Origin: Candidatus Nanopelagicales bacterium
GTDB taxonomy: Bacteria; Actinomycetota; Actinomycetes; S36-B12; CAIYMF01
Direction of reading: 5' to 3'
DNA length: 32,000 nt
NCBI GenBank assembly: GCA_050251215.1
Contig: JBFWNE010000003.1
Span: forward strand, 20,704 to 52,703
The notes below the pieces were generated by a model, which made no database searches, was not told the DNA's origin, and saw only the letters and a list, made by a program, of their open reading frames with translations. The position numbers were made by a program, and so were the translations under genes. Shown piece by piece: positions 5,651-28,838 of this stretch; positions within the stretch are counted from its first letter, which is position 1, and each line of letters begins with the position of its first letter.

Positions 5651-5792
5651 GGCTCCCCTTCCCCTCCTCGGCACGACGCTAGCGCGCAGCACGGACGCCG
5701 AGGGGTCGACGGCGGCCTGGTCCTGGTCAGCGCCGCCTGCGACGGCTCATGACCGGGCGTGGCGAGGCTGGCAAGGTCTGGCGGCCCACCGC

Positions 5793-5850
5793 TCAGCGTC
5801 AAGGACGGACCCGGAGAAGTATTCGTAGCGGCGGTCGTCCTTGACGCTGA
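5793..5850. repeat. 15-bp perfect inverted repeat with a 28-bp AT-enriched spacer in the divergent region upstream of recombinase A
   Basis: TCAGCGTCAAGGACG (5793-5807) and CGTCCTTGACGCTGA (5836-5850). The spacer contains GAGAAGTATTCGTAG, unusually AT-rich for this DNA. The right arm ends 76 nt before the ATG at 5927. Confidence 0.5.
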
Positions 5851-5926
5851 CGTGGCGCCACCTGCACCGATGCCTCCCCCGCGCACTGTCCAGGCCACAA
5901 GCCCACGACACGGGAGGCGATCGGCC

Positions 5927-7672
5927 ATGACGACCCAGCCGCGCACGCGGAAGACCCACCGCAACGGCGGGCGCGCCCAGCTCCGGACGCGGTCCGCGCT
6001 GGTGGCCCTCGAGCCGGCCACGGCCGCCAGTCTGGAGGCCGAGCTCGTCCACGGAGCCGACGCCCCGTCCTTCGCGGCCACGGCCGCCGACGCGCTCATC
6101 GACTCCTACCTCGACGAGCACGGACGGCTGGTGCCCGCCCCGTCGGAAGCCCTGCTGCACCTGCCGCCGGAGCTGACCGAGGAGCAGCGGCAACGCCGCA
6201 TCGAGCGCAGCAGGTTCGTCGACATGATCCGGGCCGACGCCTGGGCCGACAGCACCCTCACCGCGTACGGGTGGCACGTCCGGGCCTGGCGCGCGTGGGC
6301 GCGCGAGGAGGGCGTTCCGGCGCTGCCCCTCAACCCGCTGGACGTCGCCCACCACCTGGTGGACTACGCCTTCCGCTGGACCGGCGACCAGCCGGAGCTG
6401 GACGAGGACGGCGAGCCCTGCCCGGCCGTGGCCGCCAGCACCATCAGCCAGCGCATCGCGGCGCTGAACAAGCTCGCGGAGTTCGTCGGCATCCCCCGGC
6501 CGGGAGACAACGAGGGCGTGGGCCAGCTCGTGCTGGGACTGCGGCGCCGGCTGCTCGTGGCACCGGAGAACGCCAAGGCCGCCCTTGATCGCCGGTCCCT
6601 GGACCGCTGCCTGGCGGCGACGACAGGGGTGCAGCTGGCAGCCGCCCGGCTGCAGGTCATGGTGCTGCTGCGGCACGCCGCCGGTTGCACCGCCGGGCAG
6701 CTGGCGCGGCTGCACTGGGCCGACGTGGCGTTCGCCGACGACGGCTCGTGGGCTGACGTGACGTTCACGGGAAGCCGGCGCCACGATCCAGGGCGCAGCA
6801 TCCGGCTGCACAGGCGCACCGGCGCGGAGACCTGCGCCGTGCGGGCTCTGGAGGACCTGTACCGGATCTCCCCCGGTCGGGGGTGGGTGCTGGCGCACGG
6901 CAGCGGTCGGGCGCTGACGCGCCAGGCGATCCATCTGGCCGTGACGACGGCGGTGGCCGCGCCCTGGGACGAGGTCCCTCGCCTGCCTCTCGTCGAGCTG
7001 CGCCGCGCCATCCCGATGGCGACCTCATGTGGCGCGTTCATGGCGGCGCGGGACGCGGCGCTTCTCGAGGTCGGCTTCATCACCGCGCTTCGCCGCTCCA
7101 ACCTCTCCGCCCTCAACTGGAGGGACGTCGTCGACCATGGCTGCGACGGCTTCGAGCTGCGGATCCGGCGCAGCAAGACCGACCAGGAGGGCCACGGCCG
7201 GTCGAAGTGGGTGCCGCAGGCGGAGCCCGGATCGACGGGGCCATGCCCGGCGTCGGCATTCCGCCGCTACCGCGCGGAGCTCGTGAAGTCCCTCGGTCGC
7301 GAGCCGAAGGGCGAGGAGCCCGTGTTCTGCGCGGCGCTGTCGAACGGCGCGCTCCGCCGCGACGGCGAGGGCCGGCCCTGTCGGCTGACGGGCGACGGCG
7401 TCAACGAGGTGGTGCAGCGGCTGGCCACTGCAGCCGGGCTCGCCGGCACGACGGTGAACGGGCGCCACCCCTACGGCGCCCACAGCCTGAGGGCCGGGTT
7501 CATCACCGAGGCTCTCCGGGACAACAAGCTCGCCATCGAGGACGTGCAGGAGGTCAGCGACCACCGCACCATCGCGATCCTGCTCGACTATCGCCGTGAG
7601 GTGAACGCCTCGCAGCGCAACGGGAGCAGGAAGATGGTTCAGGCACTCGGGTCGTCCAGCGGCAAGGCGTAG
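5927..7672 (+). CDS. tyrosine recombinase / integrase (large, 581 aa), here recombinase A
   Basis: GGGAGG SD 9 nt before the ATG at 5927. Catalytic signature in order: ALRRSNL (Arg), RRSKTDQ (Lys), GAHSLRAGF (HxxR), SDHRT (His), LLDYRR (Tyr). N-terminal SAM-like core-binding region. Confidence 0.9.
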   Translation: MTTQPRTRKTHRNGGRAQLRTRSALVALEPATAASLEAELVHGADAPSFAATAADALIDSYLDEHGRLVPAPSEALLHLPPELTEEQRQRRIERSRFVDMIRADAWADSTLTAYGWHVRAWRAWAREEGVPALPLNPLDVAHHLVDYAFRWTGDQPELDEDGEPCPAVAASTISQRIAALNKLAEFVGIPRPGDNEGVGQLVLGLRRRLLVAPENAKAALDRRSLDRCLAATTGVQLAAARLQVMVLLRHAAGCTAGQLARLHWADVAFADDGSWADVTFTGSRRHDPGRSIRLHRRTGAETCAVRALEDLYRISPGRGWVLAHGSGRALTRQAIHLAVTTAVAAPWDEVPRLPLVELRRAIPMATSCGAFMAARDAALLEVGFITALRRSNLSALNWRDVVDHGCDGFELRIRRSKTDQEGHGRSKWVPQAEPGSTGPCPASAFRRYRAELVKSLGREPKGEEPVFCAALSNGALRRDGEGRPCRLTGDGVNEVVQRLATAAGLAGTTVNGRHPYGAHSLRAGFITEALRDNKLAIEDVQEVSDHRTIAILLDYRREVNASQRNGSRKMVQALGSSSGKA

Positions 7673-9069
7673 CGCTCGACGTCGGCCGCCCGGCCGCGGG
7701 AGCGGTCGTACTTGGCCGTCGTCGTGATGCTCTCGTGGAAGGTCAGGTCCATCGCGATCTCCAGCAGGCTCAGACCTGCCTCGGAGGCGAGCGTGACGCC
7801 TGTCGCCCGCAGAGTGCGCGTGCTGACGCTGACCTGACGGCCGTCGCCAGCCAGGGCGGGGCCACCGGCGCTGCGGTACAGCGAGCGCAGCAGCTGCGAT
7901 GCGCCCTGGAGGGTCATCGGGGCGCCCAGGTCGGTGTCGCCGGCGAACACGTAGTCGTCGTCGCTCGCGCCCTGCCAGCGTCTCACCTCCACCTGGTCCC
8001 GGAGTGCACAGGCCGGGCAGTGGCCGCCGCACCGTACTCCGCCTGCGTCGGCGTGGAGGACCGGCTTGACGTTCGGCCGGCGCTTGCGCAGCCCGGCCGA
8101 CCGCTGGATCTTGGCGCCCTTGTCGAGGCCCATGCGGCACTCGTAGCCGTCGACCGTCTCGACGATGTCGATCATGCGGAGCGCGGCCATGTCCGCGTGA
8201 CGGTTGGCGGTGACGATGCCGACGAGCAGGTAGGCGCGGTGCCGGCGGCGCCGGGCGAGCTGCGGGTCGACCATGCGGAGCCACCAGGTCCAGTCGTCAT
8301 CGGACAGCGGCCAGGACGGGCTCGCGTTCGGGTTCGGCTGAGCGCCGACCGGCCGATGCGACCTGTCCCATGCCCGCTTGAGCGCGCGGCGGTCACAGCG
8401 CCGACCTGCCACCGCGTCCCCGGAGGGGTCGGCCAGAGGCAGACGCTCCTCGGGATCAAGGTCGAGAGCAGCGCAGAGATACCGGAAGCCCTCGGGATCG
8501 CGTTCGGCGTCGACGACGCCTCTCGTTCCCTCAGCCCGGATCGCGATGCCTCGAGGGTCTCGCCGGAAGGACGACCGCGCCAGCCGCTGGGCTTGGCCGC
8601 TCAGCGGGTCCCATCCCAGGTACCGGCTCACCACCAGGACGCCGCGACGCCTGCGGACTGCGGGGAGAAGCTCGACGTCGTCGGCGACGAGCGCAGCCAT
8701 GAGCTGGGCGACGTCCGCGGTGACAGCGTCCGTCCTCGGCGCCAGGCCCGGGGGCTTGCACCGACGCTCCGCAGCGAGGTACCGCCGGATCAGCGCTCCT
8801 CGGACGGTTACCCCGACCTCTCCGAGGACCGCGGCCACGGCGCAGACGTACCCCGCCTGCGTCTCGAACGCCCAACGCTCGCGTCCGGAGAACACGAACT
8901 CGAGCACCGTTCTCTCCGCTTCCCCGTCCGGAGTGCCCGCCCCGGGTATGCGGCGGTTGTTGGCGAGGCACCACAGCTGGAACCGCGCGAACTGGCCATG
9001 CTGCGCCTCGGTGGGTCCACCGGCTCGCACCTTGGCGATGACCTGGTCACGTGCGCCATCCCTAGTCAT
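7639..9069 (-). CDS. tyrosine recombinase family protein (476 aa), here recombinase B
   Basis: The ATG at 9069 overlaps the stop of recombinase C by 8 nt (ATGACTAG). C-terminal STRTLRATG (xxxR box), FHESITTTAKYDR (His...Tyr) and an upstream ANRHADMAAL Arg box. Confidence 0.85.
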   Translation of the reverse strand: MTRDGARDQVIAKVRAGGPTEAQHGQFARFQLWCLANNRRIPGAGTPDGEAERTVLEFVFSGRERWAFETQAGYVCAVAAVLGEVGVTVRGALIRRYLAAERRCKPPGLAPRTDAVTADVAQLMAALVADDVELLPAVRRRRGVLVVSRYLGWDPLSGQAQRLARSSFRRDPRGIAIRAEGTRGVVDAERDPEGFRYLCAALDLDPEERLPLADPSGDAVAGRRCDRRALKRAWDRSHRPVGAQPNPNASPSWPLSDDDWTWWLRMVDPQLARRRRHRAYLLVGIVTANRHADMAALRMIDIVETVDGYECRMGLDKGAKIQRSAGLRKRRPNVKPVLHADAGGVRCGGHCPACALRDQVEVRRWQGASDDDYVFAGDTDLGAPMTLQGASQLLRSLYRSAGGPALAGDGRQVSVSTRTLRATGVTLASEAGLSLLEIAMDLTFHESITTTAKYDRSRGRAADVERYALPLDDPSA

Positions 9070-10543
9070 GTCCCGCTCCGTCGCCGAGGCCGCTGAGAAG
9101 GCGCACGGCAGCACTCCTGCCCGAGTGCCGACCCGTGTAGCGCAGGGTCGTCTCGGCGTAGACCTGGCGCAGGCCTGACTGGATCGTCTCGAGGTCCCAG
9201 CCGTCGCGGTCGGCCTGGTTCCCGTAGCCGCGCCGGGTGCTGTAGGCCGAGTAGGTGCAGGGAATGCCCGCGAGCCGGCACAGCCGCTCGAGGTCGTGGG
9301 CAGCGAGCTTGACCAGGTCCTTGCTCGCCTCACCCGACTGAAGCCGCGCGAGGATGAGCGGTCCGCCGCGCCCGACTCGGGCATCGCGAACGCACAGATA
9401 CTCCGCGAGGGCGTCGCAGACGATCTGGTGGTTCTCCCAGCTCAGCGCCCGCTCCACCTTCTTGTCGCCGCGCGGGTCATCCTTCGTGGAGAGGAGCCGC
9501 AGGAACCAGGCGCCTTCATCGGGCGAGAGCCAGACGCACTCGCGGGGAAGGCCGTCGAGGTCGCCGGCCATGCGCAGACCGAGGCTCCAGGCCAGGGCCA
9601 CCCAGGCGCGGGCGCGGACGATGATCAGGGCATCGCCTCGCAGGTCGGCTTCGGCCATGAGGACGAGGCCTCGCCGCAGCCCCGCCAGCTCCCATGCGGT
9701 CAAGTCGTGCCGGGCCTGCAGGACGATGGCTTGGCCGCGCGGATGCGTGGCCAAGCCGGCCCAGCCGCGGTTGCGCAGGTTGAGGAAGACCTGCTTGATG
9801 CTCGCCGGGCCCTCCGCGAACAAGACCGATGACGGGTCCAGGTTCTCGGCGACCACCTTGACCGCGCACGCGGTGCAGTCCCAGGGAACCCCTCGTGCGC
9901 GCGACTCGTGATCGCACAGAAGCACGTGGCCGGCGACGCTGACGCCGCCCTCTACAATGGCAACGTCCGCCGCCACCAACCTTCTGAGCTGCGGGACGGT
10001 GAACCCGGCATCGAGCGAGAGCAGCACAGCAGCGCGCTTGGCATCAGCCGCCGGCGTCCTCGGGACCGAGACCTCCATCAGCGTGCGCATCGCCGCGCGC
10101 GTGAGAGGCACGGCGCGACGGTCCTCCGGCTCGGCACCCGCCTGATCGTCCTGCTCGGCCAGCCGCTTCTGATACCCGCGACGCAGTCGCGTCCAGTCCG
10201 CCGCGTGCGCCCGCGACTCGATCGGCAGCGGCTCATCCCCCAGGACATGGCGCACCGCAGACAGCAGCCCCAGGACGCTGTTCCACTGGTACAGCGAACC
10301 GTCTGGCTTGCGCCGACCGAGCAGCGCGACGTAGGCCTCGTACGGTGCCGCGGCTGGGTCGTATCCCAGGGAACGACAGTGACGAATCCACGACCGGAAG
10401 CGCTCGTCGTAGTCGCTGAGCGTGCGGTCCTGCAGCCCGCGGCTGGCCAGGAAGCGCTCGAGCTCCTCGGCGAAGGCGGCTTCGTCCTCGATCTTGGGGG
10501 GCTGGAAGTAGGGCTTGCGGCCGCGGCCGCCGTTGCGTGTCAT
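9062..10543 (-). CDS. tyrosine recombinase family protein (493 aa), here recombinase C
   Basis: N-terminal SAM-like domain. C-terminal GLRMAGDL (Arg), LSTKDDP (Lys), YSTRRGYG (xxR box) and ETTLRYTG (Tyr). High GC3. Confidence 0.8.
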   Translation of the reverse strand: MTRNGGRGRKPYFQPPKIEDEAAFAEELERFLASRGLQDRTLSDYDERFRSWIRHCRSLGYDPAAAPYEAYVALLGRRKPDGSLYQWNSVLGLLSAVRHVLGDEPLPIESRAHAADWTRLRRGYQKRLAEQDDQAGAEPEDRRAVPLTRAAMRTLMEVSVPRTPAADAKRAAVLLSLDAGFTVPQLRRLVAADVAIVEGGVSVAGHVLLCDHESRARGVPWDCTACAVKVVAENLDPSSVLFAEGPASIKQVFLNLRNRGWAGLATHPRGQAIVLQARHDLTAWELAGLRRGLVLMAEADLRGDALIIVRARAWVALAWSLGLRMAGDLDGLPRECVWLSPDEGAWFLRLLSTKDDPRGDKKVERALSWENHQIVCDALAEYLCVRDARVGRGGPLILARLQSGEASKDLVKLAAHDLERLCRLAGIPCTYSAYSTRRGYGNQADRDGWDLETIQSGLRQVYAETTLRYTGRHSGRSAAVRLLSGLGDGAGHD

Positions 10544-11904: not shown

Positions 11905-12885
11905 TCACTCGGCGGCAGGGAAGAAGCTCTCGAGATCGTCATAGGCGGCGACCACAGGACCCGGAGCTTGGAGTGCGATGTGGTCGCCTTCGACGGCCTC
12001 GCGCATACCGCCGATGTCAGGGAAGAGGACTCTGCGGCTGCGGTTGTACGTGGACTCGAGGTGGGTCCTCATCGGCTTCTTGACCGTCGTGGGGATCACG
12101 AGGACGCACATAGGCAAGCTGATGGGCTTCCCGGGCCCCTTGGCGGCGCCGAAGAGGCTCTTGATCGTGGTGGCGGTCGGCAGGCGGCCTGGAGGTCGGT
12201 GCAACCCGTCCATGCCCGGCACGGATGCGGCCAGGGGGACCACGCCGGAGAGGAACAGCCCTTCTTGCGCCTGCATGCGGGCGTCGCGGATCGTCGGCGT
12301 GACCAGGAAGGGGGCCTCGTCCCGGGCGGCGGTGTTCAACGCAACGCGTAGCGGCCAGCCCAACGGGTCTGCCAGTCCCCCGTACGTGCCGGAGCCACCG
12401 GGCTCAACGGTCTGGAACTCGGGCAGGTCGGTGACGTCGAACGCGATCAGCGCGCCTGCCGCATCGCCGGTCTTGCTCGTGCGCTGGCAGGCGAACCAGA
12501 GCGCGGTGATGGGGTTGGACGTCACGTCGAGCAGCCTTGTGGGGATGCCGTGGTGCTGAAGTTGAGCGAGCACGTGGAGATCGGATCCCCAGGGGACGTC
12601 GAGGGCCACTCCCCACTGGCGCGCGGTGCGGATGAGGGCAAGCTCGCGCTCCCTCAGTTCGAGTTCGCTCGGCGGTCGCCCCAGCTCCTCGGTCAGTGCA
12701 CGGACGAGCGAGGAGGAGATCCGGTATCGGCTGTCCGGTACGCCGCGCCAGACGTATCTGCGCCCCGCCGCGAGGGTGCCGATGCGGGACACACCACGCA
12801 TCAGCTCGTCGATGGAGGAGACCTTGTAGCCGAAACCGGTGTCGACCCAGGCCTTCGGGCCCATGCCACCGGTCAGGTCGGTCAC
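11905..12885 (-). CDS. FRG domain-containing protein (326 aa)
   Basis: YVWRGVPDSRYRISSSL ((F/Y/W)RG motif). LAQLQHHGIPTRLLDVTSNPITALWFAC (the QHxGxPTRLLD core of the FRG domain). RMQAQEGLF. The GTG start overlaps the upstream stop (GTGA, 12882-12885). Confidence 0.85.
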   Translation of the reverse strand: MTDLTGGMGPKAWVDTGFGYKVSSIDELMRGVSRIGTLAAGRRYVWRGVPDSRYRISSSLVRALTEELGRPPSELELRERELALIRTARQWGVALDVPWGSDLHVLAQLQHHGIPTRLLDVTSNPITALWFACQRTSKTGDAAGALIAFDVTDLPEFQTVEPGGSGTYGGLADPLGWPLRVALNTAARDEAPFLVTPTIRDARMQAQEGLFLSGVVPLAASVPGMDGLHRPPGRLPTATTIKSLFGAAKGPGKPISLPMCVLVIPTTVKKPMRTHLESTYNRSRRVLFPDIGGMREAVEGDHIALQAPGPVVAAYDDLESFFPAAE

Positions 12886-13787
12886 GCGGATGCTCCGCCC
12901 TCGGCCGCGATCCGGTGTCGGAGCTGGTTGAGGGTGGGTCCGTCCTCACCGACGCGCCAGGCGTACCAGCCGTCGTAGGACACGACTTCTGCGGCGGCCA
13001 TCGCGGCGCCCGAGGGGCTGGCGTGCCGGGTTCCGTCGGAGAGGGTGATGACGCCATCGGCACCCAGTTCGGCGTCGTACCTGGTGCCCTTGCGGGGGCG
13101 GCGCCAGACGAGAGGCGCGGGCGTCTGCAGTGTCGCGGCGACATCGGCGAGGGTGACTTCGAGGAAGGCGCGGTCGTCCGTGGCCGCCGCCTCCGGCGCG
13201 TCGTCGGCGGGTGCCGCCGCGTCGGTGGCCTCCGGCTCGGTCTCCCACTCCACGTTGAGCACGCGGCGGCGGGATGCGTCGACGTAGAACGCGGCGCGGA
13301 TCTTCTGGACCGGCAGGCGGTGCTGGATGAGGAAGTCCAGTGCGTTGGCGGTCCTGGCATCGAAGCTGCGCGCGACGAGGACGAGCTTGGGGTCGCGCTG
13401 GACGAGGACGGGCGTGCTGGCTCCGGTGAACTCGGCCCAGTCCTCCCAGAAGGCGGCTTCTCCACCGTGGTAGAGCGAGGCGATCTGGTCCAGGTTGGTG
13501 GTTCGGGCCCAGCCGGCGTACTCCAGGGCCTGGGCGAGTTGGGAGCGGTCGATGTCGCGCTTGACTTCGATGACCACCACGCGGCCTGCGGGGTCCAGGG
13601 CCAGGATGTCCGGGATGAGTCCGCCGGGCAGGGGTGCTTGGCGACGGACCCGGAACAGGTTCTGGCCGGTCAGTTCCTCCAGGTTGTCCCAGAGCAGCGT
13701 CTCGATCTCGGACTCGTACACGTTCGCAGGGACGTGCTGGCGGCTGAACTGGACGAGATCGTCGTCGCGCAGATCGAAGATGGGCAC
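12882..13787 (-). CDS. NucS/DUF91-like PD-(D/E)xK nuclease fused to a RAMA/DUF4357-like C-terminal domain (301 aa)
   Basis: PDILALDPAGRVVVIEVKR (D...ExK nuclease core) and SQLAQALEYAGW. An acidic low-complexity linker follows. C-terminal motifs: DGVITLSDGTRHASPSGAAMAAA...YDGWYAWRV...TLNQLR. GGGGGAG SD before the GTG at 13787. Confidence 0.85.
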   Translation of the reverse strand: MPIFDLRDDDLVQFSRQHVPANVYESEIETLLWDNLEELTGQNLFRVRRQAPLPGGLIPDILALDPAGRVVVIEVKRDIDRSQLAQALEYAGWARTTNLDQIASLYHGGEAAFWEDWAEFTGASTPVLVQRDPKLVLVARSFDARTANALDFLIQHRLPVQKIRAAFYVDASRRRVLNVEWETEPEATDAAAPADDAPEAAATDDRAFLEVTLADVAATLQTPAPLVWRRPRKGTRYDAELGADGVITLSDGTRHASPSGAAMAAAEVVSYDGWYAWRVGEDGPTLNQLRHRIAAEGGASA

Positions 13788-13875: not shown

Positions 13876-14511
13876 TCAGCAGACGTCGTGCCGCCTGAGG
13901 CCGCGGGCCGTCTCTGCCGCGGACAACGCCAGGGAGCACACCGGGCAGACCACGGGGCGAACCGCCGCGGGGTGGCCGGGCCGCGCCGCGGGCCGCGCGT
14001 TCCGGGAGCCTCGTGCGTCAGCGGCTGCCTTCCGTGCAGGAGGCGAAGCCGGTTGGCTGGGCCGTGGCGGGGAGGCGGCAGGCAGCCCGGCGGTGTCGAG
14101 GTCGGAGATGTCCGCCCGCACCCCATGGGCGAGCAGCGCCTTCACGGGGCGGACAAGGCGCGTGGCCAAGCGCTTGTCCTCGGCGTTCCCCGTTCGTCGC
14201 AGCGCCACCACGACCGGCCGTAGGAGCGTCCATGCGAGTTGAGTCTGCTGGCGGGCTGCTCGTTTCTCCTTGGCGATGACGGCGAGCCTGGCCGATCGCA
14301 GATGCGGCATGGCCGTGGCCACTTGACCCACTCGGCCGCCCAGGCGTCGCTTGTCGGCATCGGTCAGTCGGACGGACACGGGGATCGACGGAATCGGCTG
14401 TTGTGGCGGCGACTCGGGTGCCGGCCGGCTCCCTTCCCCGGTGGTGGATCCGCTGGTCGCCACGAGCCGCTGTCGGCCGCGCTCTGCGTCCCAGTCAAGG
14501 CGTCTCGCCAC
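13876..14511 (-). CDS. hypothetical protein with RHH-like segment and C-terminal Cys cluster (211 aa)
   Basis: GAGGA SD 6 nt before the GTG at 14511. GC3 about 80%. VSVRLTDADKRRL resembles the beta-strand/helix start of ribbon-helix-helix proteins. C-terminal CPVCS...RRHDVC. Low-complexity Pro/Ala regions. Confidence 0.5.
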   Translation of the reverse strand: MARRLDWDAERGRQRLVATSGSTTGEGSRPAPESPPQQPIPSIPVSVRLTDADKRRLGGRVGQVATAMPHLRSARLAVIAKEKRAARQQTQLAWTLLRPVVVALRRTGNAEDKRLATRLVRPVKALLAHGVRADISDLDTAGLPAASPPRPSQPASPPARKAAADARGSRNARPAARPGHPAAVRPVVCPVCSLALSAAETARGLRRHDVC

Positions 14512-14567: not shown

Positions 14568-17500
14568 TCACGCCAGTCCTGCGTAACGGTCGACGAAGGC
14601 GATGAGGCGGTCGAGGACGGTGCGCTTCTTGGTGGCGTGGCCGGCGTCGGGAGCGAACCGGGACACCGGGGGCAGGATGCGGGTGATCGCTGTCCCGGTC
14701 GTAGGGACTGCTCCATCTCGGAACGCGTCGTTGACGAACGCGCGGGTCTCCTCCGGGCGGAGGCGCTCGCTGGTGATGATGTCCTCGAGCTCCGCCGTGC
14801 GGCGCGCGGCGAGGAAGGCCTGCCACTGGTCGCGGGTGTCGCCAGTGATCGAGACCTGCTCGATGAAGGCAAGGATGAGGTCGCGCTTGTTGCGCAGCGA
14901 CGGGCTGGAGTCGATGGCGCGCGTGACTGCCTCGGAGTCGATGACGCGGTCCTCGCCGTCGCCGTGCTCGGTGCGCCAGGTGTCGATGAGGGCGAGGATG
15001 TAGTCGACGCCGACCTCGACCTGCTTGATGAGCTCGATCTCGAAGACGACGTCGTCGTTGATCGACGCCTTCTGCGCGGCGTCGACGGTGCGGAACTCGG
15101 CGTAGAGGTCGAGGTAGACCGACCGGTAGTCCTGGAACTGCCGGGGGCTCAGCGGGTCATGCCCGGTGAACTCGTCGAACGCGGTCAGGATGTTGCGCAG
15201 CCGCAGCAGCTGCCCGAACAGGGCGATGAACTCCTTCTGCGCCGCCTCCCCCACGATCACCTGCCCGAGCGGGAACCGGGCCAGCAGGTCGGTCACGACC
15301 CGGTCGTACTCGGCGTAGTAGTCGGCGTAGGGCTTGAGCAGCACGATGCCGCGGGCGTCGCGGTTGCCGAACAGGGCGAGCGCGTCGTTGGTGGCGTCCT
15401 CGAGGTCGCGGAAGGAGACGATGTTGCCGTAGGTCTTGACCGAGTTCAGGATCCGGTTGGTGCGCGAGTAGGCCTGGATGAGGCCGTGGGCGCGGAGGTT
15501 CTTGTCGACCCACAGGGTGTTCATGGTGGTGGCGTCGAACCCGGTGAGGAACATGTTGACCACGATGGCCATGTCCAGCTCGCGGGACTTCAGCCGGCCG
15601 GCGAGGTCCTTGTAGTAGCCCTGGAACCCGTCCCCGCCGGTGTCCCACGAGGTGCCGAACATGTCGTTGTAGTCCTGGATCGCGTCCTCGAGGAAGTCGC
15701 GGGAGGGCTGGTCGAGCCCGGCGGTGTCCAAGCCCTCCTCCTCGACGAAGGTTTCGGCCTCGGCCTCGTTGGCGGCGTAGGAGTAGATCAGCCCGATCCG
15801 CAGCCGCCGGTAGCCGGGGTCGGCGGCCTCGCGGGTGCGCTGCGCGGTCTCGAACGCGTTGTAGTACCGCTTCGCCGCGTCGATGGAGGCGGTCGCGAAC
15901 AAGGAGTTGAAGCCGGACAGGCGCTTGTCGCCGAGACGGTAGGTGGCGGTGCGCTTGGTCTTCTGGTCGTAGTGGTCGAGCACGTAGTCCACGACCTGGC
16001 CGAGCCGGGTGGGGTCGAGCAGGGCGCGCTCGGTGTCGATCGCGGACACCTGCGCGTCGGGAAGGGACGCCGGGGCCTTGATGGTGTTGACGTAGTCGAT
16101 GCGGAACGGCAGGACGTTCTTGTCGTTGATCGCGTCGACGATCGTGTAGGTGTGCAGCCGGTCGCCGAAGGCCTGCTCCGTGGTGCGCAGCGCGACCGTG
16201 CCGGTGGTGCCGGCGTTCTCGGCGAAGATGGGCGTGCCGGTGAACCCGAACAGGTGGTAGCGGGTGAACGCCTTCTCGATCGCGGTGTGCATCTCCCCGA
16301 ACTGGGAGCGGTGGCACTCGTCGAAGATCAGCACCACGTGCCCGGAGTAGATGGCGTGGCCGGCGTTGGTCTTCACGAACGTCGCGAGCTTCTGGATCGT
16401 GGTCACGATGATCCGTGACGACGGGTCTTCCAGCCGGCGCTTGAGGTGGGCGGTGTTCGTCGTGCCGTCAACGGCGCCCTTCTCGAACCGGTCGTACTCC
16501 CGCTGGGTCTGGTAGTCCAGGTCCTTGCGGTCGACCACGAACAGCACCTTGTCCACTCCGTCGAGGCGGGATGCCAGCTGCGCGGCCTTGAACGACGTCA
16601 GCGTCTTGCCCGACCCGGTCGTGTGCCAGACGTACCCGCCGGCGGCGACCGTGCCCAACTGCTTGTGGTTGGTGGACGTGGCGATTCGCTGGAGGATCCG
16701 CTCGGTGGCCACGATCTGGTAAGGGCGCATGACCAGCAGCTTGCGGTCGACGTCGAAGACGCAGTACCGGGTCAGGAGGTTGAGCAGCGTGTGCTTGGCG
16801 AAGAACGTGGCAGTGAACCCGGTCAGGTCCGTGATGGGCCGGTTCTCAGCATCAGCCCACCAGGAGGTGAACTCGAAGCTGTTCGACGTCGTCCGCTTCC
16901 CGCGCCGGCTTCCCGACTGCTCCGCGAGGTGCCCAGCCCGGGTGGTGTTGGAGTAGTACTTCGTCAACGTGCCGTTGCTGATCACGAACAGTTGCACGTA
17001 CTCGAACAGGCCCGAGCCAGCCCAGAACGAATCCCGCTGGTAGCGGTCGATCTGGTGGAACGCCTCCCGGATATCCACCCCGCGGCGCTTGAGCTCCACG
17101 TGCACCATCGGCAGCCCGTTGACCAGGATCGTGACGTCGTATCGGTTCGACCGGGCCGCGCCACCGGCCTGGTCGACCTCGTACTGGTTGATCACCTGGA
17201 GCCGGTTGTTGTGCACGTGCACCTTGTCCAGGAGGTACACGTTCTTGCTCGTGCCGTCGTCGCGCTTGAGGACCTGGACGTGATCGGTCTGGATGCGGGA
17301 CGTCTTCTCGACGATGCCCTCGTTGACCCCCGCGATGCACTGGGAGAAGAACCGGTCCCACTCGGCGTCGCTGAACACGAACCCGTTCAACGCTTCCAGC
17401 TGCAGACGGAGGTTCCGCACCAGGTCGGCCTCGGACGCGATCGACACGTACTCGTACGCCTGGCCTCGCAGTTGCGAGACCAGCGCCGCCTCCAGATCCG

Positions 17501-17636
17501 CCTCGGACTGGTACGCCGACGCTTCGGAAGTCGACGGGTCGAACCGCGCCACCACGGTCGACTCGTCGCTGACCGAGATCGCCTCGAACCGCGCACCCGA
17601 CCCCGGAGCTCCCAGCTCCTCGAAGCCCTCTGCCAT
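14568..17636 (-). CDS. hsdR: Type I restriction enzyme R subunit (HsdR, family IC-like)
   Basis: 1022 aa. N-terminal nuclease region RYDVTILVNGLPMVHVELKRRG. SF2 helicase motifs (HTTGSGKT, LIFDECHRSQ, FGFTGTP, QAYSRTNR). Its ATG overlaps the hsdS stop (TGATG). Confidence 0.97.
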   Translation of the reverse strand: MAEGFEELGAPGSGARFEAISVSDESTVVARFDPSTSEASAYQSEADLEAALVSQLRGQAYEYVSIASEADLVRNLRLQLEALNGFVFSDAEWDRFFSQCIAGVNEGIVEKTSRIQTDHVQVLKRDDGTSKNVYLLDKVHVHNNRLQVINQYEVDQAGGAARSNRYDVTILVNGLPMVHVELKRRGVDIREAFHQIDRYQRDSFWAGSGLFEYVQLFVISNGTLTKYYSNTTRAGHLAEQSGSRRGKRTTSNSFEFTSWWADAENRPITDLTGFTATFFAKHTLLNLLTRYCVFDVDRKLLVMRPYQIVATERILQRIATSTNHKQLGTVAAGGYVWHTTGSGKTLTSFKAAQLASRLDGVDKVLFVVDRKDLDYQTQREYDRFEKGAVDGTTNTAHLKRRLEDPSSRIIVTTIQKLATFVKTNAGHAIYSGHVVLIFDECHRSQFGEMHTAIEKAFTRYHLFGFTGTPIFAENAGTTGTVALRTTEQAFGDRLHTYTIVDAINDKNVLPFRIDYVNTIKAPASLPDAQVSAIDTERALLDPTRLGQVVDYVLDHYDQKTKRTATYRLGDKRLSGFNSLFATASIDAAKRYYNAFETAQRTREAADPGYRRLRIGLIYSYAANEAEAETFVEEEGLDTAGLDQPSRDFLEDAIQDYNDMFGTSWDTGGDGFQGYYKDLAGRLKSRELDMAIVVNMFLTGFDATTMNTLWVDKNLRAHGLIQAYSRTNRILNSVKTYGNIVSFRDLEDATNDALALFGNRDARGIVLLKPYADYYAEYDRVVTDLLARFPLGQVIVGEAAQKEFIALFGQLLRLRNILTAFDEFTGHDPLSPRQFQDYRSVYLDLYAEFRTVDAAQKASINDDVVFEIELIKQVEVGVDYILALIDTWRTEHGDGEDRVIDSEAVTRAIDSSPSLRNKRDLILAFIEQVSITGDTRDQWQAFLAARRTAELEDIITSERLRPEETRAFVNDAFRDGAVPTTGTAITRILPPVSRFAPDAGHATKKRTVLDRLIAFVDRYAGLA

Positions 17637-18865
17637 CAGGCCACCCGTTCGGGCAGAGAGAGGAGCCGATCGCGGTAGTGCTCGTACTGCGCCCGTCGAG
17701 CAGCGATCTCCGCCGGCAAGCCGGACGACAGATCGTTGACCAGCGCATCGAAGGCGTCGAGAGCGGCCGCGATGCGCGCCTGCTCGGGCAGTGGGGGGAC
17801 GGGTAGGACCAGCGAGCGAACGATGTCCGCGTTCAGGTTCTGGACCGTGCCTGCCCCTGCACGAGAGGCCATCTCGTTGTACATGGCCGTGGAACGGAGC
17901 AAGTGGTAGAGGAAGTCGGGGACGAAGCTACTCTCGAAGTCCTTGATCGCCAGCCAGCCATCGTGGATGCAGCCTTCGATGGCCACGACGTAGGGGCGCC
18001 CGAAGCTCATCGAGTTGGACAGCACGAAGTCACCGGGCTTCACCCGTCGAGACTTCTCCGCGCCAGCTTCCGTGATGCGCTCGGCCGTCTTGGTGATGAA
18101 CTTGCCGTCGGCGGGGACGTCACCGATCTTGATCCAGTTGACACCATCCTGTCGGTCGGTGATGAACGCCTGGATGGGGCGTGGCGAAGCACCTCGGACG
18201 ATCGTGGCGATGTCTCCGAAGGGACGCTTCGGCACGTCGGAGCCTCCCGAGTAGTCGAGTAGAACGTCTCGGTAGTAGACGTACTGACGACGACGAGCGG
18301 AGAGCTCACATGCAAGCTGCGCGACCAACGTCTCCATCGCCTCTAGCACGTCGACTATCTCCCGTTGTACCTCGACGGGCGGTACGGGGATCACGATGCG
18401 AGCAAGCTGGGAACCCGACACCCGCCTCACCTTCGTGCCGCTGACGAACGGTGCCTTCTGCGACTGAAACCGCCGCGACTGGAAGCAGTAGGCGACGTAC
18501 CTCGGATCCAGCGTGTGGCGATAGATGTAGGCATCGCCGCTGACTGCGATCTCGTCAGCACCGATCCAAGCGACGGCCTTGCAGACGTCCTCATCATTCT
18601 CGCTAGTCGTCGCGATCACCAGGTCACCAGGCTGGGCCCGGCGGAGGCCTGCGCCAACTACGGGGTCTACGAAGGACACAGTCTCGCTGGCCGATGTTCC
18701 ATAGGCGGTGAAGACCTGTCCGTAGTGGATAGCACCCATCCCGCTCGCCTGCAGATCCTTCTTCTGCAGTCCGTTCCCACGGATGAACTCGCCAAGATCC
18801 CCGAGCGGTCTGTAGTGGACCCCATCCGGGCAGAGCCGCGCGATCAAGTCGTCGATGTGACTCAC
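17636..18865 (-). CDS. hsdS: Type I restriction-modification specificity subunit (HsdS), two target-recognition domains
   Basis: 409 aa. Two variable domains are separated and followed by conserved helices (IPVPPVEVQREIVDVLE...RRRQYVYYRDVLL and LPVPPLPEQARIAAALD...RRAQYEHYRDRLL). ATGA overlap with hsdM. GC content is lower than the flanks. Confidence 0.95.
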   Translation of the reverse strand: MSHIDDLIARLCPDGVHYRPLGDLGEFIRGNGLQKKDLQASGMGAIHYGQVFTAYGTSASETVSFVDPVVGAGLRRAQPGDLVIATTSENDEDVCKAVAWIGADEIAVSGDAYIYRHTLDPRYVAYCFQSRRFQSQKAPFVSGTKVRRVSGSQLARIVIPVPPVEVQREIVDVLEAMETLVAQLACELSARRRQYVYYRDVLLDYSGGSDVPKRPFGDIATIVRGASPRPIQAFITDRQDGVNWIKIGDVPADGKFITKTAERITEAGAEKSRRVKPGDFVLSNSMSFGRPYVVAIEGCIHDGWLAIKDFESSFVPDFLYHLLRSTAMYNEMASRAGAGTVQNLNADIVRSLVLPVPPLPEQARIAAALDAFDALVNDLSSGLPAEIAARRAQYEHYRDRLLSLPERVA

Positions 18866-20430
18866 GCCTGGCCGCTCTCGAGATCCGCAACTACGGCGTC
18901 GACCTTGGCACGGAGCTCCGCCTGACGCGCGACGATGCGAGCGATCTCCTCGTTCAGCTCCGTGATGTCGACGGCATCGCGGGTGTCCTCGGCCTCCACG
19001 TAGGAGGAGACGGCGATGTTGTAGCCGTTCCCTGCGATGGTGGCGTGATCGACGAGTGCGGCCATGTGCGGTATGTCGGCGCGGTTGGTGAAGGCGTCAA
19101 GGATGGCCCGCTGGTGCTCATCGGTCAGCTTGTTCTTGTTGCCCTGGCGCACGAACTGACCGGACCCGTCGATGAAGAGGATCTTGTTGTCAGTCTTCGA
19201 CTTCCTGAGCACGATGATGCAGGTCGCGATCGTCGTGCCGAAGAATAGGTCGGGGGGAAGCTGGATGACCGTGTCGACGTAGTTGTTGTCGACGAGGTAC
19301 TGGCGGATCTTGGCCTCGGCGCCTCCGCGGTAGAGCACTCCGGGGAACTCGACGATCGCCGCGGTCCCGTTGACCGCGAGCCAGTGCAGGATGTGCATCG
19401 TGAACGCGAGGTCGGCCTTGCTCTTGGGCGCGAGCACGCCCGCCGGCGCGTAGCGGGGGTCGTTGATGAGCAGCGGGTTGGCGTCGCCTTCCCACTTGAT
19501 GCTGTACGGCGGGTTGGACACGATCGCCTCGAACGGCTCGTCGTCCCAGTGAGCAGGGTCGGTGAGGGTGTCGCCGTGGGCGATGTCGAACTTCTCGAAG
19601 TTGATGTCGTGCAGGAACATGTTGATGCGGCACAGGTTGTAGGTCGTGAGGTTGATCTCCTGGCCGAAGTAGCCCTGGCGCACCTTGTCATGGCCGAGGA
19701 CCTTGTCGAACTTCAGCAGCAGAGATCCCGAGCCGCAGGCAGGGTCGTAGACCTTGTTGACCTCGGTCTTGCCGACCACGGTGATGCGGGCGAGGAGCTC
19801 GGAGACCTCCTGCGGCGTGTAGTACTCCCCGCCGGACTTGCCGGCGCTAGAGGCGTACATCGCCATGAGGTACTCGTAGGCATCGCCGAACGCGTCGATG
19901 GTGTTGCCGGCGTGGCCGAGCTTGAGATCGCCGATCGCGTCGAGAAGCTTGACCAGCTTCTCGTTGCGCTTCGCGACGGTCGGGCCGAGCTTGGGCGAGT
20001 TCACGTCGAGGTCGTCGAACAGGCCCTTGAAGTCGTCCTCTGAGTCGGTGCCCACCGCGGACGCCTCGATCCGGGTGAACACCCTCGACAGGGTCTCGTT
20101 GAGGTCCTGGTCGTGACGTGCCCGGGCTCGCACGTTGACGAACAGGTCGGAGGGAAGGATGTAGAAGCCCTTCTCCTTGACCGTCTCGGCGCGGCCGAAC
20201 TCGGCCTGGTCGTCGGGCAGTGCGGCGTAGCTGAACTGCTCGTTGCCGGCGCGGTGTTCCGCGTCGTCGAGGTAGACGGTGAGGTTCTCCGAGATGAACC
20301 GGTAGAACAGGATCCCGAGCACGTAGGCCTTGAAGTCCCACCCGTCGACGCTGCCCCGCAGATCGTTGGCGATCCGCCAGATCGTCTTGTGCAGTTCGGC
20401 CCGCTCGGTCTCCTTGGTCGCCCCGTTCAC
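18862..20430 (-). CDS. hsdM: Type I restriction-modification N6-adenine DNA methyltransferase subunit (HsdM)
   Basis: HsdM N-terminal domain (IWRIANDLRGSVDGWDFKAYVLGILFYRFISE). AdoMet motif DPACGSGSLL. Catalytic NPPY (IVSNPPYSIKW). AGGAGGGG SD 8 nt before the GTG at 20430; the track ORF extends to 20577. Confidence 0.96.
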   Translation of the reverse strand: MNGATKETERAELHKTIWRIANDLRGSVDGWDFKAYVLGILFYRFISENLTVYLDDAEHRAGNEQFSYAALPDDQAEFGRAETVKEKGFYILPSDLFVNVRARARHDQDLNETLSRVFTRIEASAVGTDSEDDFKGLFDDLDVNSPKLGPTVAKRNEKLVKLLDAIGDLKLGHAGNTIDAFGDAYEYLMAMYASSAGKSGGEYYTPQEVSELLARITVVGKTEVNKVYDPACGSGSLLLKFDKVLGHDKVRQGYFGQEINLTTYNLCRINMFLHDINFEKFDIAHGDTLTDPAHWDDEPFEAIVSNPPYSIKWEGDANPLLINDPRYAPAGVLAPKSKADLAFTMHILHWLAVNGTAAIVEFPGVLYRGGAEAKIRQYLVDNNYVDTVIQLPPDLFFGTTIATCIIVLRKSKTDNKILFIDGSGQFVRQGNKNKLTDEHQRAILDAFTNRADIPHMAALVDHATIAGNGYNIAVSSYVEAEDTRDAVDITELNEEIARIVARQAELRAKVDAVVADLESGQA

Positions 20431-20648
20431 GTTTCGCTTCCCCTCCTGGCCGGCGTCACCGGCACCACTCCCTGGGCCGCTCGACCGTGATACCTCACAA
20501 GCGCGTCGCGATCGAGTGGAACTCCGGCGCGCGGTCGACGGACCCCTGGTTCCGCCGAACACCCTAGCCACGCGCAACGACAGTCCAGCGGATCACTCGC
20601 CAGCAACCCGCGGTGCACCACCGTCACGGGCGAGCGCGGGGTGAGTGA

Positions 20649-24650: not shown

Positions 24651-25148
24651 TCAGACGCCGAACTCGGCGAGGTCGCCGACCTCCGGCTCGCCCGCGGCGC
24701 GGGCGAAGGCCGACATCGCCTGCAGGACCAGATCGCGCTCGCCGGGGGTCAGCTCCATGACGACGCGCCCGATCTCGGCGCGCCGTCGGGCGGTCACGCG
24801 ATCGACAAGCTTGCGGCCCGACGGCGTGAGCCGGATCAAGGTCTCCCGGCGGTTCTCCGGATTCTCCGAGCGTCGCACCCACCCGGCGGACACGAGGCGG
24901 TCGGCGGTGCGGGAGAACGTCGACGCGTGCACACCGAGCGCGGCCGCCAGGTCCTGGTTGCGCAAGGGCCGGTCCGACGTGGACAGCACCACCAGTGCCC
25001 GGAACTGCGGCACGGTCACCTTGTCGAGCTCGGGCGCGATCGACCGGGCGACCACTGCCAGCAGTGCTCGCGACGCGGTGAGCAGCGCTGCTGCCGTCTC
25101 GTCGGAATCCGCCACGGCCCCATCGTGCCCTGATCGTCCGTGCCTCAT
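24651..25148 (-). CDS. MarR family transcriptional regulator
   Basis: 165 aa. Winged HTH (VTVPQFRALVVL...LRNQDLAAALGVHASTFSRTADRLVSAGWVRR...DRRETLIRLTPSGRKL). Confidence 0.92.
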   Translation of the reverse strand: MRHGRSGHDGAVADSDETAAALLTASRALLAVVARSIAPELDKVTVPQFRALVVLSTSDRPLRNQDLAAALGVHASTFSRTADRLVSAGWVRRSENPENRRETLIRLTPSGRKLVDRVTARRRAEIGRVVMELTPGERDLVLQAMSAFARAAGEPEVGDLAEFGV

Positions 25149-25206
25149 GCGCGCACGCCACGCATGCTATGGTGCATCAGTTGCTGTCATACATGAAAGC
25201 GAGCAC

Positions 25207-25695
25207 ATGGCGACGACCGACGATCCCGATCCGGCAGGGCGCGGCCCCGGCCTGTGGCGCGGGGCCGGGATCTTGGTGCTCGTGGTGCTGCTCGTCGCCG
25301 GCGTCGCCCGGTTCATGCGCCAGGACGTCGTGTCCAGCTGGCGGCTGCTCGCGTCGTGCACGGCGTCCGCGGACGTCGAGGTCCAGGCCGTGTCCACCAG
25401 CCTTTCCACCCGAGCCTGTGCGAGCCCGGCCGCGCGGACAGACGTGGCCCGCGGCTGGCCGGTCGTGACGTTCGTGCTCCCGTCCTCGGCCGGGACGCGC
25501 CCGACCATCCGCGCCGTGCGCGCGGACAGCGGCGCGCGCTCGATGTGGGTCGAGTACGAGGTCCGAGGGGACGGCCGGGCCGGCAGCGATGTGGTGCTCG
25601 CGTTCGTCGAGGTGCCGCCCAACGCGCTCCCGCCGCTGCCGTTCACCGTCCGCGGGGCCACCGGCCTGCTCACCGTCGAGACGATCCCGGGATGA
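25207..25695 (+). CDS. hypothetical membrane-anchored protein (162 aa)
   Basis: The ATG at 25207 lies 58 nt from the divergent MarR start. N-terminal TM anchor (GILVLVVLLVAGVARF). Its stop overlaps the ClC start (ATGA). Confidence 0.55.
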   Translation: MATTDDPDPAGRGPGLWRGAGILVLVVLLVAGVARFMRQDVVSSWRLLASCTASADVEVQAVSTSLSTRACASPAARTDVARGWPVVTFVLPSSAGTRPTIRAVRADSGARSMWVEYEVRGDGRAGSDVVLAFVEVPPNALPPLPFTVRGATGLLTVETIPG

Positions 25696-27083
25696 GCGCC
25701 CGCATGCGCGCCGCCGCCCGCACGCTGCACCGGTACGGCGGGCAACCGCGCCTGCTCTGGCTGTCGCTGCTCGTCGGCATCGTTGCGGGGCTGGGGGCGC
25801 TCGCGTTCTCGTGGGCGCTCGCGGCCGCCACGCAGCTCCTGCTCGTCGACCTGGGCGGCTACACGCCCGCGACGACCCTCGGCGAGGGCACCGGGGCCGC
25901 GGCGTCGTCCTTCGAGCGCCCGTGGGCCATCCCCCTCGTCGTGGGGCTCGGCGGCCTGGTCGCCGGGATCCTCGTCCAGACCTGGGCCCCCGAGGCGGAG
26001 GGGCACGGCACCGATGCCGCCATCGCGGCCGTGCACCACGACCCCACCGGAATCCGGCTCCGGGCCGTGCTCGTCAAGCTCGTGGCATCGGCCATCACGA
26101 TCGGATCGGGCGGCTCGGGCGGCCGCGAGGGCCCTACCGCGCAGATCAGCGCGGGCACGGCGTCCGCGCTCGCCCGCTGGCTCCGCCTGCCGCACAGCAC
26201 CGGGCGGCTCCTCGTCACCGCGGGCATGGCCGCGGGCATCGCGTCGATCTTCCGGGCCCCCCTCGGCGGCGCCCTGCTCGGCGTCGAGCTGCTCTACCGC
26301 GACGACCTCGAGTCGGACGCCCTGCTGCCGAGCCTCTTCGCCTCGGTCACGGGGTATCTGGTGTACGGCTCGGTCGCCGGGTTCACGCCGATCTTCGGCG
26401 ATCAGAGCGCGGTCGCCTTCAGCGGAGCCACCCAGTTCGTGTTCTTCGCCGTCCTCGGCCTTGCAGCCGGTCTGCTCGCCCGCCTGTACGCCGGCAGCTT
26501 CTACGGCGTCGCCGCGGCGGCCCGCCGGGTCGTGCTCCCCCGGTGGCTGCTGCCGGCGATCGGCGGGGTCCTCGTCGGGTTCCTCGGGCTCGCCGTGCCG
26601 GGCGTGCTGGGCACCGGGTACGGGACCGTCCAGGCGTTCTTCTCGGCAGACAACGTCCTCGCCGTGCCGCTCCTGCTCGTCCTCGTGGTCCCGGTCGCCA
26701 AGATCCTCGCCACGAGCCTGTCGATCGGGTCGGGCGGCTCCGGCGGCATCTTCGGCCCGGGGATGGTGATCGGGGGCACCCTCGGTGCCGCCGTGTGGCG
26801 GCTGCTGCACGAGATCGCTCCCGGGACCCCGTTCGATGCAGCCGTCGGCCCGTCCCCCGGCATCTACGTCGCCGTCGGCATGGTCGCGGTCTTCGGCGCC
26901 ATCTCCCACGCGCCGCTCGCCATGATCGTGATGGTGGCGGAGATGACCCAGAACCTCGCGGTCGTGCCCGGCGCCATGCTGGCCCTCGTCGTGGCGTCCC
27001 TGATCGTCGGCGAGCGCACGATCTACCGGAGCCAGCTCGCCGCCCGGAGCGACCTGCCGCGGCCCGAGCCGGTTCAGGTGTAG
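25692..27083 (+). CDS. voltage-gated chloride channel (ClC) family protein
   Basis: GSGGREGP and GGIFGPGMVIGG selectivity-filter motifs. Multiple TM segments. Confidence 0.93.
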   Translation: MSARMRAAARTLHRYGGQPRLLWLSLLVGIVAGLGALAFSWALAAATQLLLVDLGGYTPATTLGEGTGAAASSFERPWAIPLVVGLGGLVAGILVQTWAPEAEGHGTDAAIAAVHHDPTGIRLRAVLVKLVASAITIGSGGSGGREGPTAQISAGTASALARWLRLPHSTGRLLVTAGMAAGIASIFRAPLGGALLGVELLYRDDLESDALLPSLFASVTGYLVYGSVAGFTPIFGDQSAVAFSGATQFVFFAVLGLAAGLLARLYAGSFYGVAAAARRVVLPRWLLPAIGGVLVGFLGLAVPGVLGTGYGTVQAFFSADNVLAVPLLLVLVVPVAKILATSLSIGSGGSGGIFGPGMVIGGTLGAAVWRLLHEIAPGTPFDAAVGPSPGIYVAVGMVAVFGAISHAPLAMIVMVAEMTQNLAVVPGAMLALVVASLIVGERTIYRSQLAARSDLPRPEPVQV

Positions 27084-28363: not shown

Positions 28364-28806
28364 CCGACCAGCCGGTCCACGATGACGTTGACGCTCACGA
28401 CGCCGAGGAACCTGCCGTTGTCCACAACGGCGACGAGGGGTACGTGCGCGGCCGACAGGACCGCCGCGATCTCGAGGAGCGTCGCGTCGCCGTCCACGGC
28501 GGTGGTCCGCGTCCGCGAGGGGCGTTCGAGGGCGTCGACGAGGTCGGCGACCGTGAGGTGGGCGAGCGTCGAGGCGAGGTCGTCCGAGGACGCCTCGTCC
28601 CAGACCCGGGCCAGCGACGGGTCGTCGCGCACGTACGTGGGCACGGCGACGCGCAGGACCTGCGACGCCGGGACCACGACGTACTCGTGCCCGAGGTCCA
28701 CCACGAGGCCGGGCAGGCCCGCCGACACGAGCAGCCGGAGGGCATCGCTGAGCCGCTGGGACGGCTCGATCAGGGGCGCCGGCACGGCGAGGTCGCGGGC
28801 TCTCAC
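28360..28806 (-). CDS. CBS domain pair protein (148 aa)
   Basis: Two CBS-like units (PLIEPSQRLSDALRLLVSAGLPGLVV and DGDATLLEIAAVLSAAHVPLVAVVDNGRFLGVVS). The GTG at 28806 is the first start after the stop of the diguanylate cyclase gene. Confidence 0.78.
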   Translation of the reverse strand: MRARDLAVPAPLIEPSQRLSDALRLLVSAGLPGLVVDLGHEYVVVPASQVLRVAVPTYVRDDPSLARVWDEASSDDLASTLAHLTVADLVDALERPSRTRTTAVDGDATLLEIAAVLSAAHVPLVAVVDNGRFLGVVSVNVIVDRLVG

Positions 28807-28838
28807 ACGGCGAGTCTGCCCGACGGGTCGCTCCGGCG

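Follow-up and report, generated by a model that had tools for sequence, protein, structure and literature searches.

RAMA domains were named for their association with restriction systems and adenine methylation, and a 2016 study predicted that nucleases fused to RAMA are restriction enzymes that read methylation (Iyer et al. 2016); the prokaryotic fusions were still counted as future work in 2024. The sole RAMA domain that has been assayed in vitro, that of MPND, showed no preference for N6-methyladenine (m6A or 6mA) and no sequence preference. Among the classical modification-dependent enzymes, E. coli Mrr has been reviewed as a winged-helix domain joined to an Mrr-cat nuclease, and its gene lies with hsdRMS and mcrBC in the ICR ("immigration control region"). 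The Aravind group placed Frg in the ADP-ribosyltransferase (ART) superfamily and proposed it as an NADase antiviral effector (Burroughs and Aravind 2020, as cited in PMC9503650), and an independent survey listed FRG among the ART-like families. The PDC families are presented, in the parts of the preprint that describe them, as single-gene phage defence candidates that lie within or beside BREX, DISARM and type I restriction-modification (R-M) systems and were catalogued without testing (Payne et al., bioRxiv 10.1101/2024.01.29.577857). Here we analyzed a stretch of 32,000 nucleotides from a Candidatus Nanopelagicales bacterium (hereafter the window; 70% G+C, GC), in which a gene for a NucS-like PD-(D/E)xK nuclease with a RAMA domain (gene A) overlaps a gene for an FRG-domain protein (gene B) behind a type I R-M operon. 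A first-pass annotation had proposed A and B as an undescribed defence pair. We consider it probable, at roughly 70%, that they are not a dedicated two-component system but independent single-gene defence modules, which were stacked at the operon's 3' end within an integrase-bearing island and are co-transcribed.

Co-occurrence of the two families was examined in 74 loci seeded with the A profile, on contigs of one genome per species, and in 80 loci seeded with the B profile, on metagenome contigs. Both profiles were run with a threshold of E<=0.01 on all six-frame open reading frames (ORFs) within about 8 kb at these loci, a procedure independent of gene calling, and both genes were recovered in the window's own lineage. 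No FRG match was found in the A-seeded loci (0/74) and no A match in the B-seeded loci (0/80), with at least 1.1 kb of room for a partner downstream of A in 65 of 74 and upstream of B in 49 of 80. Eight additional look-ups of close homologs likewise yielded no partner (0/8). The closest non-identical homologs of A, P0004 (66% identity) and P0009 (63%), had no FRG neighbour, and six B homologs (49-53% identity; five of them flanked on each side by 3 kb or more) had no RAMA neighbour. No A-B fusion was present among the listed homologs, and none of these listed homologs carried the other family's Pfam domain among its precomputed domains. The A-B arrangement was seen on six near-identical contigs from one lineage with one shared context, which amount to a single observation. 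Among the sampled genomes, A-B adjacency is confined to this one lineage in one context. Because the families were never neighbours in the other sampled genomes, the reading of A and B as a pair was dropped; such absence elsewhere, which the first-pass annotation had set beforehand as grounds for abandoning the pair, is what we found.

The earlier statement that the genes match no named defence system did not hold either. PADLOC matched the nuclease half of A to PDC-S11 (E 4e-23, residues 24-194), its RAMA half to PDC-S14 (E 9e-12, residues 191-296), and B to 14 PDC-S15 profiles (best E 1.2e-24). Both families are already catalogued, as fusions of RAMA to restriction endonucleases (Iyer et al. 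2016), as Frg within the ART superfamily, and as PDC-S11, PDC-S14 and PDC-S15. The only unusual element is the coupling of A to B, which is lineage-specific. A probable defence role and a place behind a type I R-M system, also part of the first-pass annotation, were upheld. As defence islands go, this mosaic one is ordinary, and the claim of a new pair is one to drop. In the literature examined, neither the NucS-like nuclease-RAMA family nor the FRG family came with a reported activity or a phage-protection test.

The neighbourhoods of the A family were informative in themselves. An hsd-like gene was found within 5 genes of the A homolog in 22 of 55 A loci. As a rule the homolog closed the gene run, with hsdM or hsdR as the gene just before it and a spacing of -4 to 18 nt between the two. 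Among tight upstream neighbours, 8 of 11 were HsdR- or HsdM-like, and complete R-S-M sets adjoined A homologs in at least six loci, also beside P0009, which overlaps hsdM by 1 nt. A tight downstream gene followed the A homolog in just 4 of the 55 loci, and no family recurred there. At one of them (L162, 6001-8351, the locus of P0009), the end of the A homolog shares 4 nt, at its stop, with an Exo_endo_phos (EEP nuclease/phosphatase) gene, which stands behind hsdR-hsdS-hsdM and differs from the FRG gene that occupies the tight downstream place in the window. The A family is tied strongly, and often operonically, to adenine-methylating restriction systems, which makes it a convenient test case for m6A reading by prokaryotic RAMA domains.

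These neighbourhoods bear on the possibility that A is an accessory of the type I R-M system, a methylation-state reader and nuclease in the service of HsdM, HsdS and HsdR (it might mark self DNA, for instance, or add cleavage capacity), with B as an unrelated passenger. The frequency of nearby hsd-like genes, the tight spacing behind HsdR- or HsdM-like genes, the 1-nt overlap of the close homolog P0009 with hsdM, and the very association for which RAMA was named all agree with such a role. However, more than half of the A loci lack a nearby hsd-like gene, other A homologs neighbour Eco57I-type, AspBHI-type and type III-like enzymes, and A itself lies about 780 nt from hsdR with a GC content unlike that of the hsd genes. 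We therefore regard an accessory role as unlikely.

The FRG genes showed a broader range of contexts. In 7 of 68 B loci they followed a type I operon or stood within one, with the order hsdM-hsdS-FRG-hsdR in L153 and FRG likewise inside a type I operon in L149. In about five loci (L077, L079, L087, L100 and L115) FRG directly followed MmeI/Eco57I-type methyltransferase-restriction enzymes, an arrangement shown by the metagenomic relatives closest to B. These MmeI-like genes could be of the PglX type of BREX systems. Other FRG genes lay after KAP NTPase or AbiH genes, or beside a TrwC relaxase. L168 (1-4716) offers a further case of FRG in a mobile defence island: there, an FRG homolog and a serine recombinase directly follow a complete CBASS-like cassette (SMODS, ThiF/E1, JAB and SAVED). 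Each family alone tends to follow adenine-methylating restriction systems.

The junction of A and B, described in the first-pass annotation as a GTGA overlap, was read directly from the sequence, as were the limits of both genes. The stop codon of A (TGA, 12884-12882) shares bases with the start codon of B (GTG, 12885-12883), and the two genes overlap by 4 nt. A GGCGGAG motif inside the 3' end of A may serve as the ribosome-binding site for B. A start of B at the ATG of codon 8 (12864-12862), where GGTGG ends just 1 nt before the ATG, was judged less likely, because the spacing between GGCGGAG and the GTG is 7 nt and the 326-amino-acid product is the one given by every pipeline; with either start, the A-B distance is within 17 nt. 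There is nothing peculiar to this junction, since an identical GTGA joins hsdM and hsdS; hsdS and hsdR overlap by 1 nt. The overlap is explained by co-transcription from the operon end, which requires no physical or functional partnership.

The alternative is a true two-gene system: the RAMA nuclease would sense DNA or cut it, and the FRG protein, being translationally coupled to it, would act with it in fixed stoichiometry. The overlap with its upstream Shine-Dalgarno-like motif, the retention of A-B on all six contigs of the lineage, and the defence association of both families are consistent with it. Nevertheless, the partners did not co-occur in any of the 154 seeded loci or the 8 look-ups, the precomputed domains of the listed homologs include no fusion, and the six near-identical carriers count once; moreover, hsdM and hsdS are joined in the same way, and A is normally a terminal gene without a recurrent downstream partner. 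These results make a two-gene system improbable. A more elaborate idea, which we treat as a long shot, is that in the Nanopelagicales lineage A and FRG have been welded into a sensor-effector module, with A sensing DNA or its methylation to license an NAD+-directed FRG, and that, more broadly, NucS-RAMA proteins of the A type are a fourth, methylation-reading partner of type I R-M systems with a downstream slot for interchangeable effectors (FRG here, Exo_endo_phos in L162).

The domain composition assigned to A at first, a NucS-like PD-(D/E)xK nuclease, an acidic linker and RAMA, was borne out by the Pfam RAMA match, by NucS neighbours in Foldseek and by disorder at residues 184-203. The AlphaFold model had a predicted local distance difference test (pLDDT) score of 88.2. 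In an alignment of 34 relatives, the invariant columns were E25, E29, P59-D60, E74-x-K76-R77 and QLAQxLEYAGW; residues 60-77 read DILALDPAGRVVVIEVKR. A thus keeps an intact PD-(D/E)xK catalytic core made up of D60, E74 and K76. No family was matched above threshold within residues 1-183, where the matches were to NucS and weak: NucS_C (PF01939) gave 15.5 bits against a cut-off of 24 (E 0.018), and the NCBIfam NucS models NF003270 and NF002876 gave 17.5 bits against 216 and 13.5 against 252. The A family profile aligned D...ExK to the motif of NucS 2vld (E 0.016). By structure, the model matched NucS/EndoMS (2vld, 5gke and 5gkj) with E 1.6e-4 and a probability of 1.00, and Shedu SduA (8ps5) with E 7.5e-3 and a probability of 0.97. 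The two-domain order of NucS, with an N-terminal DNA-binding and a C-terminal nuclease domain, is not that of A, in which the nuclease motif begins at residue 25 and RAMA is C-terminal. A is NucS-like in fold and not a NucS orthologue; the NucS-type label given earlier stands for the fold (Foldseek E 1.6e-4), whereas the sequence scores stay below the NucS thresholds.

Orthology to NucS was rejected on these thresholds, on the RAMA C-terminus and on the mobile R-M context. We likewise give almost no weight to the possibility that A is a housekeeping repair paralogue of NucS/EndoMS, a mismatch endonuclease that lies in a defence context by coincidence: NucS/EndoMS is the best fold match and the sole weak sequence match, but A falls far under the equivalog cut-off (17.5 versus 216 bits), ends in RAMA and not in a NucS tail, belongs to a mobile island where it follows an R-M operon, has homologs in variable, R-M-rich contexts, and is placed by PADLOC in defence-candidate families.

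The nuclease module of A is not bound to RAMA. The same module carries DUF4268 in place of RAMA in L057 (361-1446) and L064 (7962-9026), which points to A being one combination within a nuclease family with swappable accessory domains. In L061, L062 and L065, A-type nuclease modules were seen with other, unassigned C-terminal extensions. A itself joins a nuclease to a putative reader, RAMA, and has no methyltransferase domain of its own, which is the type IV arrangement.

The RAMA assignment was made by Pfam PF18755 on residues 196-295 (56.4 bits against a cut-off of 35.2). The segment SPSGAAMAAAEVVSYDGWYAWRV...LNQLR occupies residues 257-290. The model matched the MPND RAMA-DNA complex 7ydw with E 2.2e-3, a target-normalised template modelling score (TM-score) of 0.71 and a root-mean-square deviation of 3.1, and the A family profile matched MPND RAMA with E 0.056. 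Mutation of S113, S115 or W135 abolishes double-stranded DNA (dsDNA) binding by MPND; in the alignment with A, these residues correspond to S257, S259 and W274, all three of them conserved in the A family.

For B, the assignment as an FRG-domain protein was confirmed by PF08867 on residues 43-138 (66.9 bits against a cut-off of 25). The alignment of 34 relatives showed conserved W46-R47-G48, S58-S59 and HHG-PTRLLDVT-NP (112-125), together with R203, A206-Q207-E208-G209-x-F211 and P289-D290. The AlphaFold model (pLDDT 89.3) had no significant neighbour among PDB folds (best E 0.18); 38 of the top 50 PDB matches, each of them non-significant, were ART-fold proteins, including an Rhs ART toxin, pertussis-like and diphtheria toxins, PARPs, cholera toxin, Arr and Scabin. 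Weak PolyVal-ART and PARP-like matches were obtained in a viral library. PDB sequence searches with B, as a single sequence and as a profile, returned only designed helical repeats and PLK1, at E >0.05. R47, S58-S59 and E208 are invariant or nearly so and lie at or beside strands 44-49, 56-57 and 209-213 of the model, where they may correspond to the catalytic residues of an R-S-E type ART. An ADP-ribosyltransferase-like fold is plausible for B. FRG domains had been described at first as functionally uncharacterised; this stands insofar as their activity is only predicted, but the Aravind group does assign them, in the work cited above, to the ART superfamily as predicted NADases. A toxin-antitoxin-like pair, in which A would neutralise a toxic FRG protein or FRG a toxic A, would suit overlapping genes on a mobile element and a predicted NAD+-targeting, toxin-type domain, but is dismissed as extremely improbable because such a pair should co-occur, and FRG lacked an A-like neighbour in 86 of 86 other loci and A lacked FRG in 77 of 77.

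The features of the locus are listed in Table 1. A and B are confirmed as genuine coding genes, with a clear coding signal and hundreds of homologs each at 40-67% identity (395 homolog clusters for A). GC content at third codon positions (GC3) was 0.88 in A and 0.85 in B, and that at second positions (GC2) was 0.48 and 0.52, respectively. Independent gene callers gave the same products of 301 and 326 amino acids, and B is 100% identical to P0121, annotated as "FRG domain-containing protein" in a Candidatus Nanopelagicales metagenome-assembled genome. A scan for promoters and terminators gave nothing usable around A and B.

Table 1. Features of the A-B locus and its surroundings (positions in the window; aa, amino acids)
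Feature	Positions	Strand	Description	Evidence
Gene A	12882..13787	-	301 aa, GTG start; NucS-like PD-(D/E)xK nuclease + acidic linker + RAMA	ORF, translation, Pfam, AlphaFold
Nuclease domain of A	13239..13787	-	residues 1-183	alignment, Foldseek, PADLOC PDC-S11
Acidic disordered linker of A	13179..13238	-	residues 184-203; sequence EPEATDAAAPADDAPEAAAT	pLDDT <50
RAMA domain of A	12888..13178	-	residues 204-300	Pfam PF18755, Foldseek
Gene B	11905..12885	-	326 aa, GTG start; FRG-domain protein	ORF, translation, Pfam, AlphaFold
GTGA overlap	12882..12885	-	A stop / B start	read from sequence
GGCGGAG Shine-Dalgarno-like motif	12893..12899	-	inside A 3' end, 7 nt upstream of B GTG	
Pfam FRG domain of B	12472..12759	-	residues 43-138; W46-R47-G48, S58-S59, HHG-PTRLLDVT-NP	
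Second half of conserved core of B	12241..12471	-	residues 139-215; invariant R203, A206-Q207-E208-G209, F211	
hsdR	14568..17636	-	type I restriction subunit, 1022 aa	Pfam HSDR_N, SWI2_SNF2, T1R_D3-like, EcoR124_C; PADLOC REase_I
hsdS	17636..18865	-	specificity subunit, 409 aa	Pfam Methylase_S; PADLOC Specificity_I E 6e-130
hsdM	18862..20577	-	N6-adenine methyltransferase	Pfam N6_Mtase E 5e-110, HsdM_N
Doubtful R/A/P-rich ORF	13876..14511	-	211 aa, between hsdR and A	no family match
Tyrosine recombinase	5759..7672	+	phage-integrase family	Pfam Phage_integrase 38.4 bits vs cut-off 27.1; PHROG integrase families
Second integrase-like gene	7639..9069	-	476 aa	PHROG integrase families E 2e-9; gene call on L156, L157

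The hsdM, hsdS and hsdR genes, each with strong type I R-M matches in both Pfam and PADLOC, lie upstream of A-B on the same strand; hsdM encodes 571 amino acids as the longest ORF and 522 according to other gene callers (L155). The first-pass annotation had placed the pair two genes downstream of hsdR. The downstream position was retained, but the intervening 211-amino-acid ORF is doubtful. It was called in the Logan and ENA contigs and left uncalled in the NCBI record, its translation is of low complexity, its GC2 of 0.63 is atypical for local coding sequence, and it was seen only in the Nanopelagicales lineage of the window. No family was matched by it in searches with Pfam, PADLOC and NCBIfam profiles, and it may not be a real gene.

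The wider region is probably an integrative island with stacked defences. One integrase-like gene (7639..9069) lies downstream of A and B on their strand, and several ORFs around the downstream recombinases are confined to the window's lineage. Neither a tRNA integration site nor element ends were found in the window. The GC content was 0.63-0.66 in the hsd genes, 0.70 in A, 0.68 in B and 0.70-0.75 in the flanks, which suggests that the acquisition of the hsdMSR block was an event distinct from that of A, B and the flanks; the lower value of the hsd genes fits a mosaic of separately acquired modules. The two tyrosine-recombinase-like genes converge and overlap slightly, and a 493-amino-acid ORF without a family match (9062-10543, minus strand) overlaps the second of them by 8 nt. 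Farther away, at 25000-29000, AT skew changes sign, with values of about -0.30 at 26-27 kb and +0.25 at 27-28 kb, and very long ORFs overlap on both strands (25167-27977, minus; 25589-29212, plus). The 936-amino-acid minus-strand ORF at 25167-27977 had no Pfam match.

Under the favoured reading of A and B as independent stacked modules, the type I R-M operon would have been acquired horizontally, with A and B stacked at its 3' end. In A, the flexible acidic linker tethers the PD-(D/E)xK core to a dsDNA-binding RAMA domain, and RAMA might guide the nuclease to DNA of a given adenine-methylation state. A would thereby form a second restriction layer beside an m6A-writing type I system, like Mrr beside hsdRMS in E. 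coli; its target may be foreign m6A patterns, which it would attack, or host methylation may serve it as a self mark. B would consume NAD+ or ADP-ribosylate a target during infection and may act as a backstop of the abortive-infection type. Methylation sensing by RAMA, an NADase or ART activity of FRG and an anti-phage phenotype are what we would infer from this arrangement.

Several points weigh against this reading. An m6A-dependent nuclease beside an m6A methyltransferase would have to be specific enough to leave host sites uncut, and the behaviour of MPND in vitro, without 6mA preference, makes the reader function of RAMA in A a prediction. The assignment of FRG as an ART rests on the literature and on individually non-significant fold matches (best E 0.18), and B has no sequence match in the PDB. 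The 74 and 80 seeded loci are a sample, short of a full census. Finally, the 4-nt overlap and the internal Shine-Dalgarno-like motif imply co-expression of A and B in this lineage, and a functional link specific to the lineage may exist.

When the locus is set beside known systems, A resembles PDC-S11 and PDC-S14 in its embedding beside type I R-M, in the window as in many A homologs. It covers only the N-terminal half of PDC-S11 (358 positions) and only the C-terminal part of PDC-S14 (280 positions), and thus joins one module of each. B keeps the conserved W-R-G, S-S and Q-E-G motifs of the PDC-S15/FRG family, whose members occur in R-M, CBASS, KAP NTPase, AbiH and mobile contexts; the coupling to a RAMA nuclease is the sole feature that sets B apart. 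Like E. coli Mrr, A fuses a PD-(D/E)xK-type nuclease to a domain that binds or reads DNA, and its gene lies next to hsdRMS within a variable defence island. However, its reader is a C-terminal RAMA, whereas that of Mrr is a winged helix, and its nuclease is NucS/Shedu-like with ExK, whereas Mrr-cat has PD-QxK; the modification dependence of A is predicted. NucS/EndoMS (2vld and 5gke) is the best structural match of residues 1-183, with D...ExK aligned, but A differs in scoring below all family thresholds, in its RAMA C-terminus and in its mobile defence context. Shedu SduA (8ps5) resembles A in the fold of the nuclease and in being a single-gene defence nuclease with variable accessory domains. 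The early view that the architecture is not that of Shedu was correct: A has no SduA/DUF4263 profile match in PADLOC or Pfam, the domain order and RAMA differ, and the fold alone is similar. Finally, MPND RAMA (7ydt and 7ydw) shares with A its fold and three dsDNA-contact residues, matched by invariant residues in A, although RAMA is coupled to a JAB/MPN domain in MPND and to a nuclease in A.

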